Of a stretch of DNA of 64,000 bases, positions 23,501 through 29,500 are shown piece by piece (position 1 is the stretch's first letter; each line of letters opens with the position of its first letter). Origin of the DNA: Escherichia coli (GTDB lineage: Bacteria; Pseudomonadota; Gammaproteobacteria; Enterobacterales; Enterobacteriaceae). The position numbers were made by a program. Where the stretch lies: assembly GCF_965641715.1 (NCBI RefSeq), contig NZ_OZ282453.1. One strand, given 5' to 3'.

Positions 23501-26500
23501 GCAAACACAGATGAACAGAAGAAAGCCATAAGGAAGATAAAATTTCGCATAGAACTTCCCCGCTTAATGAGCATTAGCATTCTGGCTAAAATCTATTGTT
23601 GGGGCTTTACTTACTGCGGCGACATCATCCGGTAAATAATTTTTCTTTGGCGTGTAATCCATGACCTTTGCGGTTAATACAGCGGGGAATTTGCGGATAG
23701 TGACATTATATTGTTCAATGGCTTTAATATATCTTCCTCGCGCAACGGCAATTCTATTTTCACTTCCTTCGAGCTGTACCATTAAGTTTTGATAGAGCTC
23801 TTGAGCCTTTAACTCAGGGTAACGCTCACTAATTATCGTTAACTGACCGAGAGTGCGAGTCACCTGCGCCTGGGCCTGTTGCCAGGCTTGTAATTTTTGT
23901 GCATCTCCGGGAGCTTGCTGAAGATCGCTGCTGGCGCGATTAGCCTGGCTACGAGCCAATGTTACGGCTTCCAAAACGTCTTTTTCATGGTTGGAATAAC
24001 CTTTAATACTGGCGACAAGATTAGGAATAAGATCGGCGCGACGTTGATATTGATTTAATACCTCAGACCAGGAGGCGTTAACCTGCTCATCATAGGTTTG
24101 AATATCGTTATATCCACAGCCTGATAAATTGAAAATAAATATAATTACGATGAATATCCTGAGCATGTTTAAATCCTTTTTCATTAATTCCTTAAAACAT
24201 AATACGCCGCTTCATTTTATTCTTTATGATCTAATGCACTTTTTGCCTTAAACCTGCCTGTAACAGAATGTTAATAAGACATGATTGTTGCGGCAGGATC
24301 TGCAATAATTAACAATTATCCACTTCACAGAGAATGCTATGCAGTACCCGATTAACGAGATGTTCCAGACCCTGCAAGGTGAGGGTTACTTTACCGGCGT
24401 CCCCGCCATTTTTATTCGTTTACAGGGATGCCCGGTTGGCTGTGCCTGGTGCGACACCAAACACACCTGGGAAAAGCTTGAGGATCGGGAAGTCTCCCTT
24501 TTCAGCATTCTGGCGAAGACCAAAGAGAGTGATAAGTGGGGGGCGGCGAGCAGTGAAGACTTGTTGGCTGTCATTAGTCGCCAGGGATACACCGCGCGGC
24601 ATGTGGTGATTACGGGTGGTGAGCCTTGCATTCATGATTTGCTACCACTGACTGATCTGCTCGAAAAGAACGGTTTTAGCTGCCAGATCGAGACCAGTGG
24701 TACTCATGAGGTACGCTGTACACCGAATACCTGGGTTACCGTATCGCCAAAGCTGAACATGCGCGGCGGCTATGAAGTGTTGTCACAGGCACTGGAGCGA
24801 GCCAACGAAATCAAGCACCCAGTGGGACGCGTACGTGATATTGAAGCACTGGATGAACTTTTGGCGACGCTGACCGATGATAAACCGCGAGTCATTGCAC
24901 TGCAGCCGATTAGCCAAAAGGATGATGCCACACGTTTGTGCATTGAAACCTGCATTGCGCGTAATTGGCGTTTGTCGATGCAAACCCATAAATATTTAAA
25001 TATTGCCTGATTAAACATTTATAAGCGTTATAAATGGGTGGAACCTGTGAAGACTTCTACTCATTTATATTCTTTGTCGTCTCTGAAAAACATCCATTTT
25101 GCCCATCCTGAACTAATCATTATCATTCTCTACAAATTCTGTGGCGTTAATTTTTCGTTGGAGTGAAAATTATTGCGGTAAAGTTTGGTAGATTTTAGTT
25201 TGTATAGAGTTATTTTAAATATTTACCTTTTTAATCAATGGGTTAAGTGCTCTTTAACATAATGGATGTGTTGTTTGTGTGATACTGTAAAGTTGGTAGA
25301 TTGTGACTGGCTTAAAAAATCATTAATTAATAATAGGTTATGTTTAGAGAGTTCCCCGCGCCAGCGGGGATAAACCGGGCGACCGGCAGGCGGCCTATGC
25401 GTTTTTCACGAGTTCCCCGCGCCAGCGGGGATAAACCGGGGCATTAGAATAACTTAAATGGAAAAAGAAAGAGTTCCCCGCGCCAGCGGGGATAAACCGG
25501 CCTTATCTCTGCTTGGATTCTCTGCTGATGTGAGTTCCCCGCGCCAGCGGGGATAAACCGCGGCGCACACGTTGTATTTGTGCTGCCTATGCGAGTTCCC
25601 CGCGCCAGCGGGGATAAACCGCCCACCAGCGCGTTTTTTGCCGGGGCCATAGTGAGTTCCCCGCGCCAGCGGGGATAAACCGGCAATGCTCGTACGCCGT
25701 CTCACTCCGCGTGAGAGTTCCCCGCGCCAGCGGGGATAAACCGCGGGGGCGCGGGGTGTGGACGCATTCACAGCAGAGTTCCCCGCGCCAGCGGGGATAA
25801 ACCGTATATGCAGTGCTGACAGACCGGGGGGCGCAAGAGTTCCCCGCGCCAGCGGGGATAAACCGGCAACGCAGGAACCGCAGGCGGTTCGTCATCTGAG
25901 TTCCCCGCGCCAGCGGGGATAAACCGCTTGCCGCGCCAGGGTATTTTTGTGTGGTCGTGAGTTCCCCGCGCCAGCGGGGATAAACCGTCCGCAACAACTC
26001 AGAGAACCAGACACCAAGCGAGTTCCCCGCGCCAGCGGGGATAAACCGTTTCGCCGCCGGGAAAATTTATATTAACGTTGGAGTTCCCCGCGCCAGCGGG
26101 GATAAACCGCGAAGCACGTCGGGGACCGTAAGGCGTTTGAAGAGTTCCCCGCGCCAGCGGGGATAAACCGCAATCCACGCCGAAGCGCTGGAAATGGAAA
26201 AAGAGTTCCCCGCGCCAGCGGGGATAAACCGTTTACCTGCTCGGTGATATCGTCCTGCAAATCGAGTTCCCCGCGCCAGCGGGGATAAACCGGGTACAAA
26301 AGAGGCCCCATTCTGGCAGGGCTCAAGTTCCCCGCGCCAGCGGGGATAAACCACCATATAACCCATTATCTCTTTCTCAAGTTTTTATATTAGCAGTACT
26401 CGTAATAAGCAACATATCCACGTAACACCTCATGTTCAGAATAGCTCGCCATATATGAGAAGTTCACAATTATCGATACAAAAAATTAAATTTAATCAAA

Positions 26501-29500
26501 GTGTTATTTGTATGATGCTTAAACCGTTAAGAAATTTTCATATATTATTTTTTTTAATGTTGAATTAATGTCTATTAATTTTTTCTTCAGGATAATAGTT
26601 TGTTTTTTAAGCTTGTTATTCATTGATTAAGTAATAAATCAGAAAAATTGTCTTTGTTTTGAGGCTAATGAGTGGTTTTACATAACCGCCTCTATACGCT
26701 GTTGATGAATAGTTCTTATGAATAAAGATATCCAGTTCATACTTTAAGTGAAAATTGATAAAGTGCGATTCGTATTGTCTTTTATTCTAAAGACATCGAG
26801 TGTAGTTAATATTCCTTGTAAAAACAGGGATAAACCGAACTAGTTAAAGTTTTTATTATGTTCCCCGCGTCAGCGGGGATAACCATTCAGGTATGTTCAG
26901 GCCGGGCTGTTTCCCGCCCGGCCTTCCTCACTTACGCATTCGACCAGCTCTGGATCGAATCCGCATTTCCCAATTCCCCATGCATCACTTCATACGATTT
27001 TTTCAGAATCACATCAGTATGTTTGGTTAGGTCTTTGAAAATGCCTTTATTCATCGCGTCGTAGCGTTTGGCATTGCTCTCAATCGGTATAAAGATATCT
27101 TTCACGCGAACCATTTTATCGACAGCCGTTGCGTAATCCGGGTATAGCCCCAGACCTACCGCTGTATTAATCGCTGCCCCCAGACTTGCACAACCGTTAA
27201 TGGCGTTACGTCGTGCCGGAAGGTTGAACACGTCGGCAAAAATCTGCATAAACAGATCGCTGTTCGAACCGCCGCCAGTAATGATTACATGCTTCGCAAA
27301 GTGATTCATTTCATTACACATATTGTCGTAATTGTTCTTCAGCGTCAGCGCCACGCTTTCCAGTATCGAACGATATATCCATGCGTAATCCATGCTGGAA
27401 TCAAAGCCGATCATAATCCCGCGTTTGTACGGTTCCCACGGATTGGTCAGCCAGTCCAGCACCGTCATCAGCCCATTACAGCCAGGTGGCACACTAGAGG
27501 CTTTCTTGTTGAGTAAATCTTCCGGTGAAAGATCCTGCGCCCTGGCATCCTGAATTAACGACTCGCCTAACATGTCGCGCAGCCAGCTCACCGTCCACAT
27601 GCCTTTGCGAATACCGTAACCTTCATACAGCAATGTTTGCGGAATAGAAGACATAATCGGCCAGTACGCCACCGGATCTTTCGGCAGTGCTTTGCCGTTC
27701 ATCATCAATGCGATGTAAGTGCCAAGAGAAATTACCGCAGTTTCATCATCCAGTAATCCGGCCCCCAGAGCTTCTACCGGTTTATCACTGGTGGTACAAA
27801 CAACCGGCAGCCCTGCCGGGAAATGTGTCGCCAGCGCGGCTTGTGGTGTGATCTGTCCAAGAACAGTGCCTGGCATTTGCACATCAAACAGCATATGACG
27901 GGGGATATTAAACTTCTCCATGACTGCGGCATCTTCACTCCATGCCCAGCTCTTATAATCCACCGGCCACTGACCAAAATAGTTGGCGATATTGTCTTTA
28001 AACTCGCCGGTTAAGCGATGCGTCAGATAACCCGAAAAAGAGGTGACATAGGCCACGTCAGGATTAGTGTGTTCGTAGGGACGCGTTACGCGTGCATCCT
28101 GCCAGCTAATCAATGGCGCAGCTGGCGTGCCATCGGCTTTCAATAACGCACGGCAGCAACGGATGGATCCCAGACCAATAACGACAATATCTTCTTTATT
28201 CCCGGCAAACTGACTCATCAAATCGTGACCGGCAAAACATAATGATGCCCATAAATCGTCGTCAGGATGTTCTGCGGTATCGGCATCTGGCGTGTGCATC
28301 GGCTGCAATAAACCTTTGCCTTCGCAAACCACGTTACCTTCCAGATCGTACATCACCACTTTTGTGCTCTGACTTCCGCCATCAATCCCTATGATGTATT
28401 TCTTCGACATGATTTTTCTCCTGTAATTTTCCTGGCTTACTTGCTGCTAGCCATTGCGGGGGCGCTATCAGCAGTACGAATTTTTTGGAACAGCAAAAAG
28501 GTAAAGACAATCACCATGGCAAGCGCCGCCATGCCCATCAGCCACATATTGCGGTAGGCTTCTGCTGCGGGCAGGGTGTCTTGCCAGTGGCCGATAATGG
28601 GGTAAACGAAGACATCCGGCAGGAATCCAATCACCGAGCAAATACCTACCGTGGTGCCCATAATGTAAGACGGTGTTCTCGCTTCGCCAGGGCAGGCCCA
28701 GTACAGCCCGCGTGAGGCGTAACAGGTGAATCCCAGCAGTAAAATCAGGCCAATCCCCATCGCGACCGATTGCGGGTTAGAGTTCGTGACGAGCAGGGCA
28801 GTTAACGCCAGCAGGCCGAGTACGGAAAGGATTTGGATCACGCGGGTAGGGGATTTCACTTTGCTGTAGGTGGTGATTATGCCGCCAAGTGGGCCGCACA
28901 GCGCGCGGAAGATTTTGTTGATCACAATCCCCATGTAGCTCGCCGCCACCAGCGACATGCCGTACATTTCGGTCAGATAGTTGGTGGAGTAACTCAGAAT
29001 GGCGTAGATGGTGAAGACACCAAAAATCACCATGCTGCAATACCAGGTGGTACTGATACGCAAAACGGCCAGGATATCGCTAAGCTGGAATGACTGTTTT
29101 TCTTCGTTATTGGCACTGCGCTGGTTGTTGTTATCGCTAACAAAAAACCAGCACAGAATCCCCAACAAGATGTAAACCACACTATAGATGATAATGACCG
29201 TTTTCAGGCTGGTGCTGTCATCCGGTGCAAAGCGAGAAAAGACCCACATGGTAAACACTGCCAGCGACATTACACCGACGCCGCGCAGCCCTTCCATCCA
29301 GCCCATAATTTTCCCTTGCTCGCTATGATCGCCAAGCAACGAGGCGGCTTTAATCGACACCGACCACAGCATTAAAATCGTTGTTATCGCAAAGGCGACC
29401 TGAATACAGAGCATTACCCACAGCGGTGGATACGTTGCCATTAACAGACCCAGTAATCCGGTAATGATCATCGCGGAAGTAATCATTTTGCGGTGTGAAA

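Follow-up and report, generated by a model that had tools for sequence, protein, structure and literature searches.

Within the 64,000-nt stretch of Escherichia coli DNA analyzed here (hereafter, the window), the CRISPR-II locus comprises, in order, queE, leader2.3 (25011–25348, + strand), which serves the main CRISPR-II array as its functional leader, that array itself (CRISPR2.3; 25349–26353, + strand), ~0.47 kb of DNA with a GC content of 28%, a mini-array, and the 3' end of ygcE (26932–28410, − strand), an FGGY-family carbohydrate kinase gene that is convergent with the arrays. CRISPR2.3 consists of 17 repeats, the last of which reads AAGTT...ACCA, together with the 16 spacers that the initial annotation had counted; a complete cas set is also present in the window. 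Because ygcE lies on the minus strand, the mini-array, which sits 46 nt beyond the ygcE stop codon, is downstream of the gene and not upstream of it, as had been stated. A GC-rich hairpin (26899–26924) occurs directly past the same stop codon.

Synteny with K-12, as well as open reading frames and RefSeq annotation in matching genomes, places the mini-array at the ygcE end of the ygcE–queE (ygcF) interval, the position of the element termed CRISPR2.2 (Diez-Villasenor et al. 2010, as cited in PMC3903273 and PMC4489801). This element is named apart from CRISPR2.3 (PMC3903273, PMC4489801) and has been described as three repeats with two invariable spacers (PMC4489801). The two arrays are reported to lie 0.5 kb apart, with leaders adjoining CRISPR2.1 and CRISPR2.3 only (PMC3903273, PMC3737337), and the intervening DNA has been variously presented as a 0.5-kb conserved non-coding sequence within CRISPR2 (PMC2886076) and as an AT-rich sequence that splits CRISPR2 (PMC10910852). 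An AT-rich, non-coding separation of ~0.5 kb from CRISPR2.3 is likewise found in the window.

The mini-array had initially been recognized as a repeat fragment, a spacer-like segment of 22 nt and a degenerate repeat, corresponding to acagggataaaccg (26824–26837), positions 26838–26859 and gttccccgcgtcagcggggataacc (26860–26884), and all three segments are present. Inspection of the first, which had been taken for a truncated repeat, revealed a full-length, degenerate one: R1, the first CRISPR2.2 repeat (26809–26837, + strand), has the sequence ATATTCCTTGTAAAAACAGGGATAAACCG, matches the consensus repeat at 18/29 positions and is predicted to adopt the 7-bp hairpin of that repeat. Across its 5' 16 nt, R1 agrees with the consensus at 7 positions (P=0.013 for this composition), and its 3' end retains a perfect GGGATAAACCG, part of the 5' handle, which outside both arrays occurs in the window only in CRISPR2.2 and in a cas3-cse1 intergenic element. 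The sole remaining spacer, S1 (26838–26857, + strand), is 20 nt long in the 29-nt repeat frame, or 22 nt when measured up to the GTTCC core. The terminal repeat, R3 (26858–26886, + strand), keeps an intact hairpin and has a degenerate 3' end, ATAACCAT; it matches the consensus at 23/29 positions in an ungapped register and at 25/27 when the one lost A is allowed for, in agreement with the initial description. The C-to-T change that was assigned to the stem instead falls in the tetraloop (GCCA to GUCA), and the GUCA-loop variant is the normal repeat form in other Escherichia lineages and also appears in a published repeat consensus (PMC3737337). The resemblance of these segments to the consensus exceeds chance, as judged by the near-unique GGGATAAACCG and the 23/29 match of R3; the consensus repeats and 32-nt spacers of an active array are, by contrast, lacking (R1 18/29, R3 23/29, spacer 20 nt). 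R1 is identical in the divergent E69 lineage and in nearly all E. coli alleles, and S1 is invariant across 72 metagenome contigs.

K-12 provides the fuller form of the array with which the initial annotation had proposed comparison. Against its three repeats and two spacers, the window is shorter by exactly 61 bp, equal to one repeat and one spacer (R2 and S2), leaving two repeats and one spacer, whereas the published description has three repeats with two invariable spacers. The remaining CRISPR2.2 sequence is identical to that of K-12, which marks the window copy as an allele of CRISPR2.2. The deletion junction (26855–26864, + strand) falls within a 10-nt TTATGTTCCC common to K-12 R2 and R3, and about 220 of 5,426 complete genomes (~4%) carry this junction. 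Slippage or unequal recombination between the 10-nt TTATGTTCCC copies of the second and third repeats probably produced this precise loss, converting the usual three-repeat, two-spacer form into two repeats around one 20-nt spacer; deletion of this type is the ordinary route of spacer loss in arrays. Three genomes, E69 and one metagenome contig carry another one-unit deletion, which removes 49 bp. CRISPR2.2 alleles thus fall into three types, holding S1 only, S2 only or both, all of which are explained by unit deletions. Neither the 30 genomes sampled across the ranking nor the 85 metagenome contigs showed an expanded allele or spacer gain, and with three allele types and no longer allele the locus does not display the spacer turnover of an active I-E array.

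The window copy shares with CRISPR2.2 as described its ygcE–queE position, R1, R3, S1 and the AT-rich tract (94–100% identical to K-12 and other strains), and differs in having one repeat and one spacer fewer, owing to the 61-bp deletion. We consider it probable, at roughly 75%, that the element is the described E. coli CRISPR2.2 remnant together with the AT-rich sequence that parts CRISPR2.2 from CRISPR2.3 in the queE–ygcE interval. Both the element and the tract already have names in published work on E. coli CRISPR loci; the form in the window is a deletion allele carried by a minority of genomes.

The AT-rich tract that follows CRISPR2.3 is 457–472 nt long, consistent with the ~470 bp first noted, and its GC content of 28% reaches a minimum of 18–21% around positions 26450–26650. 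It is present in 4,126 of 5,426 genomes, is single-copy in E. coli genomes, and is older than the split from the E69 lineage. Comparison with K-12 and E69 shows that the left 120 nt continue CRISPR2.3 in the form of two decayed repeat-spacer units, an assignment that relies on the sequences of those two homologues. The first unit (26389–26415, + strand), in 61-nt phase with the array, is unrecognizable in the window (10/27), and its E69 homologue, GTTCCCTGTATCAGCAATAAATAACAT, matches at 15/27 positions at the exact 61-nt offset (a score reached by 104/5000 shuffles). The second (26444–26470, + strand) is likewise more decayed in the window than in K-12, whose homologue, GTTCTCCATGCCAGAGAGGTTCACAAT, matches at 16/27 positions (10/5000 shuffles). 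The AT-rich middle (26471–26700; GC 18–30%) yielded no repeat, leader or gene signal. The idea that the whole tract is a fossil array was set aside, as a template of eight 61-nt units scored weakly against shuffles (z 0.4–2.2) and only the first two units were supported. The left and middle portions are 29% diverged from E69 and contain many indels, which corresponds to a neutral level; window-to-E69 identity is 79% for the tract (with 39 gap columns), 74% for ygcE four-fold sites and 94.7% for leader2.3. No phage or true plasmid matches to the tract were found, the matches in plasmid collections being chromosome-sized, mislabelled E. coli records, and Rfam returned no relevant family at E below 1. 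An origin from a mobile element was rejected on the basis of these phage and plasmid results and of the lack of inverted terminal repeats.

The initial annotation held that the mini-array was a second, decayed array with its own leader. The first part of this statement accords with the published view of CRISPR2.2; the second finds no support in the sequence. The tract resembles the functional I-E leaders, leader2.1 and leader2.3, in being AT-rich and in lying upstream of a first repeat in the same orientation, but it does not contain their shared core and is mostly unconstrained, whereas leader2.3 is strongly constrained (94–98% identity among E. coli, E. albertii and E69). When the tract was aligned to the two functional leaders, as had been suggested, in an anchored test, the 70 nt preceding R1 did not align with either leader core (z 0.5 and −0.7); the last 70 nt of leader2.3, serving as a positive control, aligned with the CRISPR2.1 leader core at z 4.4 (0/1000 shuffles). 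The leader core that adjoins the first repeat of an active I-E array is accordingly not found directly upstream of R1, most of the tract is neutral, and its left 120 nt belong to a decayed array. A local comparison of the leaders with the tract, which was not significant, was replaced by the anchored test after the control failed under that scoring, and an nhmmer search with a leader2.3 profile gave no tract match, at a power low enough that the CRISPR2.1 leader control also gave no new matches. Similarity between a conserved 70-nt patch of the tract and the reverse complement of leader2.1 was discounted, with 10/300 shuffles scoring equally and the result failing correction for four comparisons. 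As leader2.1 and leader2.3 share only their last 60–70 nt, the lack of likeness to them is no proof against a former leader, and the strong conservation of the 70-nt patch keeps the idea alive: a former leader, or a leader or promoter of another type, may reside in this patch, 40–110 nt upstream of the mini-array. Lacking a leader akin to leader2.1 or leader2.3, and with no spacer ever gained, the mini-array would not function as an adaptive array, and is probably immunologically inert.

The patch (26701–26770) differs from E69 at 4/70 positions, compared with 29% for the remainder of the tract (P=2.4e-5; Fisher 2e-7 for the patch and R1 together). The mini-array is similarly conserved, with no differences from E69 in R1, 2/34 in S2 and 1/29 in R3, while the flanks on either side of the patch and mini-array are 16–29% diverged. 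Among E. coli metagenome contigs, the R1-S1-R2-S2 segment holds two non-singleton variable sites in 110 nt and the adjoining 44 nt hold eight; the 38 nt next to R1 are variable. Within the region, only the patch and the mini-array are constrained, and since R1, S2, R3 and the patch do not drift as purely vestigial DNA should, a vestigial reading is weakened. The patch contains a promoter-like pair facing the mini-array (TTCATA-17 nt-TAAAGT) that lies below threshold, and a promoter scan accordingly reported nothing at threshold; no RNA structure signal was detected in the patch on either strand. Two candidate coding frames in the patch were discarded, one of 31 amino acids in which changes are mostly non-synonymous, and one of 20 amino acids on the minus strand that is truncated in E69. 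A metagenome scan with a 26-mer from the patch returned only ordinary E. coli alleles. Between the patch and R1, a small hairpin (UGUCUUU / AAAGACA; 26776–26795, + strand) is predicted, in which 4/4 transitions in four alleles preserve plus-strand pairing (G-U or C-G), a pattern that is not statistically significant, the distinct alleles being too few to demonstrate covariation.

How CRISPR2.2 came to be separated from CRISPR2.3 can be read in two ways. The locus has been described as a single ancestral array split near its old end by a foreign AT-rich insertion, here ~0.3 kb (PMC2886076, PMC10910852), and this account finds support in the degenerate repeat units that flank the AT-rich middle on both sides and in phylogroup B2-like E. 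coli, E. albertii and E. whittamii, where a single array ends in the same R3, which abuts ygcE without the tract. The region also accepts insertions, since ygcE and queE are directly adjacent outside Escherichia. Yet the tract is single-copy, has neither terminal inverted repeats, a target duplication nor a mobile-element gene, and has no relative in phages or true plasmids; moreover, the repeat-to-repeat distance of 483–489 nt is close to 8 × 61, which would not be expected from an insertion, and repeat-mediated deletions such as the one documented here account equally well for the three independent absences. We regard a split array as possible but doubtful. The other reading, of two independent tandem arrays that each once had a leader, with the tract as the decayed leader of an older CRISPR2.2, draws on the AT-richness of the tract and its placement immediately before R1 in the direction of transcription, on the conserved patch, and on an age that predates the E69 split. 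In the tract-less lineages, the terminal repeat looks chimeric, combining a normal repeat (GAG prefix) with R3, which is the product expected from a repeat-to-R3 deletion. Against this history stand the dissimilarity of the tract to the leader2.1 and leader2.3 cores, which align with each other, and the variability of the 38 nt beside R1, where leader cores are most conserved. In addition, the leader-proximal R1 is the most degenerate repeat, although a once-active array should keep it best, spacer gain is seen in no examined genome, and the literature assigns CRISPR2.2 no leader (PMC3903273). Two formerly independent arrays consequently seem rather unlikely.

The conservation of the mini-array and patch also bears on function. 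The 5' handle and hairpin of R1 and the 3' hairpin of R3 would supply, as read from their sequences, the layout needed for one crRNA-like RNA, and if the element were transcribed, Cas6e might cut at the two kept hairpins to release a 20-nt guide, for which the window offers no target. This layout, a perfect GGGATAAACCG and 7-bp hairpin in the first repeat and an intact hairpin in the second, is that of Cre-type mini-arrays (bioRxiv 10.1101/2023.03.10.532045), and the cas3-cse1 spacer of the window itself holds an I-E mini-array of the published type, whose first repeat is similar and whose target is flanked by AAG (PMC10120712). CRISPR2.2 and the patch could, on this basis, be a maintained crRNA-like or small-RNA gene, in which a patch promoter drives transcription, Cas6e cuts R1 and R3, and Cascade is guided to a partly matching site in the manner of CreR/CreA. 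Strong conservation relative to neutral flanks, the complete cas set, and a region that folds far better than shuffles (z −6.1) are in keeping with such a gene, as is a spacer 12 nt under normal length. A shortening of 12 nt equals two 6-nt steps of the Cascade backbone. Target searches do not favor it, however: seed-plus-PAM matches to S1 and S2 across the 64-kb window peak at 9/12, as do shuffled-spacer controls, with none in the cas3-cse1 region, while the same scan recovers the known-type positive control at 11/12 with an AAG PAM. Phages and plasmids yielded no credible S2 protospacers. A 9/12 match of S2 to the patch itself (ATG PAM, three seed mismatches) is not supported in E69 and was treated as chance. 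The element is, further, neither within nor beside the cas operon, the cas genes being about 16–24 kb away (~16 kb to cas3) and CRISPR2.1 about 25 kb. It is missing in B2-like E. coli, E. albertii and E. whittamii, lacks a promoter at scan threshold, and exists as alleles with S1 only, S2 only or both, a poor fit to one essential guide. In K-12, Cascade ChIP-seq motifs have been reported only for CRISPR-I spacers and one CRISPR-II spacer, with no motif from those of CRISPR2.2 (PMC5904413). A maintained small-RNA gene is thus improbable, and its fully specified form, in which a patch-driven plus-strand transcript is trimmed by Cas6e to a crRNA-like RNA with a 20-nt guide here and a 32-nt guide in other alleles, acting on a target outside the window or by titrating Cas6e and Cascade, slightly more so.

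As in the terminal repeats of nearly all Escherichia and Salmonella arrays (PMC2886076), the 3' end of R3 is degenerate, and as at the decaying trailer ends of arrays, two decayed units trail CRISPR2.3; R1, S2 and R3 are nonetheless far better conserved than neutral flanks, unlike in simple trailer decay. Similarly to CreA/CreR (bioRxiv 10.1101/2023.03.10.532045, PMC8501985) and to the I-E cas3-cas8e-spacer mini-arrays (PMC10120712), CRISPR2.2 in the window has two degenerate repeats around one spacer, forms a conserved unit that gains no spacers, and carries the 5' handle in its first repeat and the 3' hairpin in its second, but it lies outside the cas locus, its spacer content depends on the allele, and no partly matching, PAM-flanked target for it was detected in the window.

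As it stands, the finding that the element is a deletion allele of CRISPR2.2 matters little. Three results make modest additions to the literature: CRISPR2.2 is not strictly 'invariable', comprising three alleles linked by one-unit deletions; the 0.5-kb tract holds decayed array at its left end; and the mini-array and 70-nt patch evolve several-fold slower than neutral flanks. Should this constraint reflect a crRNA-like RNA, a regulatory component of the best-studied type I-E system would have been overlooked.

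The paired arrays of this stretch are the CRISPR-I and CRISPR-II arrangement of E. coli. Between the coding region for QueE (YgcF; 24339-25010) and the main CRISPR-II array, CRISPR2.3 (25349-26353; 17 type I-E repeats and 16 spacers), lies an AT-rich leader, leader2.3 (25011-25348); 3' of the array follow a tract of 457-472 nt with 28% GC, a short repeat-like cluster at 26809-26886, a GC-rich hairpin and, beyond it, the 3' end of ygcE on the minus strand. The second array, CRISPR2.1 (51842-52422; ten good repeats), stands directly 3' of a complete I-E cas set; its terminal repeat is strongly decayed (GAATTCCCCGCCCCTGCGGTAGAACACCC, 20/29, 52453-52481), and one of its spacers is 33 nt long (repeat spacing 62, 52271 to 52333). 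Mojica-group papers distinguish three E. coli arrays of type 2, place CRISPR2.2 and CRISPR2.3 in the ygcE-ygcF interval, either 'separated by 0.5 kb' or fused as CRISPR2.2-3, and report leaders solely beside CRISPR2.1 and CRISPR2.3 (PMC3903273, PMC3737337). The cluster next to ygcE is this already known CRISPR2.2 remnant, present here as a minority allele with one unit deleted. Tract and mini-array occur together in 4,126 of 5,426 complete E. coli genomes, each time as a single chromosomal copy. The window also holds a full-length LemA-family gene (23564-24184, minus strand; Pfam E 9e-49), at whose position the K-12 annotation has only the 46-aa yqcG.

All of the sequences quoted in the initial annotation were found where it had placed them. 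The repeat that it called truncated extends leftward into a full-length degenerate repeat, R1 (ATATTCCTTGTAAAAACAGGGATAAACCG), which repeat finding aligns over its entire length and whose 5' 16 nt hold 7 consensus matches against the approximately 3 expected for the composition (P=0.013). R1 folds into the 7-bp stem and 4-nt loop of the consensus repeat, with two C-G pairs replaced by U-A and one by U-G; every difference from the consensus is a GC-to-AT change. Drift biased towards transitions would usually leave a C/G stem paired, and the kept pairing of R1 by itself is therefore not taken to prove selection. The C-to-T change attributed to the stem of the last repeat instead falls in the loop, where T is the standard base in the repeats of E. 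albertii, E. whittamii and E69 (CP089930, a strain of a divergent lineage used here for comparison of rates) and is also carried by a published consensus (PMC3737337). Similarly, the mini-array, first described as upstream of ygcE, is 3' of that gene.

Relative to the K-12 form of CRISPR2.2, which runs R1-S1-R2-S2-R3 (R, repeats; S, spacers), the window lacks exactly 61 bp, corresponding to the second repeat and second spacer. The breakpoint lies inside 10 nt (TTATGTTCCC) that start both the second and third repeats, which points to loss by slippage or unequal recombination between repeats. The same junction is shared at ≥99% identity by 220 genomes, O145:H28 strains and NCTC86 among them; as the deletion rides on the K-12 tract haplotype in NCTC86 and on a different one in the window, it has either arisen more than once or spread between backgrounds by recombination. 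A third allele, which keeps the second spacer and is missing 49 bp, arose by recombination within GGGATAAACCG and is carried by E69, 3 complete genomes and one metagenome contig of K-12-like background. Neither 30 genomes sampled throughout the ranking nor 85 metagenome contigs contained a longer CRISPR2.2 allele. In the K-12 locus record (CRISPR2.2 at 2984-3093), the short first spacer, AACTAGTTAAAGTTTTTATT, starts with the palindrome AACTAGTT and is similar to the second (GACTTGTTATCATTTTTTAAGTTG...) once internal deletions are allowed for; a unit may have been partially duplicated here long ago. The sole genome with a 100% tract match, that of strain GDSC2227PM, shares the tract haplotype of the window and has a different array content, its CRISPR2.3 being much shorter. 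One other strain carries an IS1 in the tract (locus record 3063 onward), with CRISPR2.2 and ygcE absent from the annotated neighbourhood, and another has an IS1 inside the second CRISPR2.2 repeat.

The tract had been proposed to be the mini-array's own leader, a proposal for which we find support neither in sequence nor in rate. When the 70 nt immediately preceding each array's first repeat were compared, leader2.3 resembled leader2.1 (z 4.4; 0 of 1000 shuffles as good), whereas the 70 nt before CRISPR2.2 bore no likeness to either functional leader (z 0.5 and -0.7), and a search of the tract with a leader2.3 profile gave no match. E69, located via its ygcE gene, represents one divergent lineage that has the tract. 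Between it and the window, leader2.3 is 94.7% identical and the tract 79% identical with 39 gap columns, while identity is 74% at the four-fold degenerate sites of ygcE and 74-77% over the 291 nt of that gene closest to the mini-array. Judged by these rates, most of the tract is free of constraint, which a working leader would not be.

Part of the tract can be traced to the array on its left. In E69, 34 nt past the last good repeat, GTTCCCTGTATCAGCAATAAATAACAT is offset by exactly 61 nt and gives 15/27 matches (a site as good turns up anywhere in 104 of 5000 shuffles); in K-12, GTTCTCCATGCCAGAGAGGTTCACAAT, near the second unit position, gives 16/27 (10 of 5000 shuffles). The window homologues of both units, at 10-11/27, are unrecognisable on their own. 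These decayed units identify the left 120 nt of the tract as a decayed CRISPR2.3 tail. Beyond these 120 nt no repeat signal was found, and the whole tract aligns to eight ideal units weakly better than shuffles do. The tract has no phage match, true-plasmid match, inverted ends or Rfam hit.

Conservation along the tract and mini-array is very uneven. Between K-12 and E69, differences reach 29% in the left and middle tract, drop to 4/70 (P=2.4e-5) in a patch at 26701-26770, return to 21% in the 38 nt after it, and then amount to 0 in R1, 2/34 in S2, 1/29 in R3 and 16% in the 45 nt between R3 and the ygcE stop. Taken together, the patch and R1 stand apart from the remaining tract at Fisher P=2e-7, the P values for the patch being optimistic since it was picked after viewing the data. 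The patch is 94% identical to E69, whose neutral sites are ~25% diverged. Across 72 metagenome contigs, the 110 nt of R1-S1-R2-S2 contain 2 non-singleton variable sites, against 8 in the adjoining 44 nt. One recent recombination tract is unlikely to be the cause, as the ygcE end beside the mini-array is at neutral divergence. The mini-array region folds far above shuffles (z -6.1); a search for an RNA structure signal in the patch found none, which suggests that the patch acts at the DNA level. A promoter scan of the patch returned nothing above threshold, its TTCATA-17 nt-TAAAGT pair, oriented toward the mini-array, scoring 8/12. Between patch and R1, the pairing of a small hairpin at 26776-26795 (plus strand, via G-U) survives four transitions, which with four alleles only is not significant.

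A regulatory role for CRISPR2.2 is of low probability. CreA/CreR-type elements retain the 5' handle in their first degenerate repeat and the 3' handle in the second (bioRxiv 10.1101/2023.03.10.532045), and R1 and R3 show exactly this pattern. However, CRISPR2.2 is distant from the cas genes, is lacking from several lineages and differs in spacer content among alleles; K-12 Cascade ChIP-seq yielded no motif from it (PMC5904413), and the best target sites for S1 and S2 in the window, at 9/12, equal those of shuffled spacers, with none in the cas promoter region. The same scan was applied to a repeat-like element in the cas3-cse1 intergenic region, ACCTTCCCTACTTAAGTAGGGATAAACCG (45824-45796, minus strand), which forms a hairpin of its own and whose 5' handle is perfect; the seed region of the 32-nt spacer after it matches an AAG-flanked site at ~45949, within the same intergenic region, at 11/12. 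This element resembles the regulatory mini-array published for type I-E systems, a kind that Shmakov et al. locate in the cas3-cse1 spacer (PMC10120712).

Comparison of the locus across relatives bears on its history. In Citrobacter, Klebsiella, Enterobacter and others, as in one divergent 'E. coli', ygcE and queE are immediate convergent neighbours with no intervening array, and E. albertii, E. whittamii and one ExPEC strain have leader2.3, 1-3 repeats and then the terminal repeat R3, without the tract. These layouts fit insertion of the tract into a single ancestral array; they also fit recurrent deletion from a normal repeat to R3 in the tract-less lineages, where such an event would leave the GAG prefix that the terminal repeat carries. 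Either two independent arrays, as first proposed, or one array that was split may account for the interval. The tract itself dates back to the divergence of E. coli and E69 or earlier.
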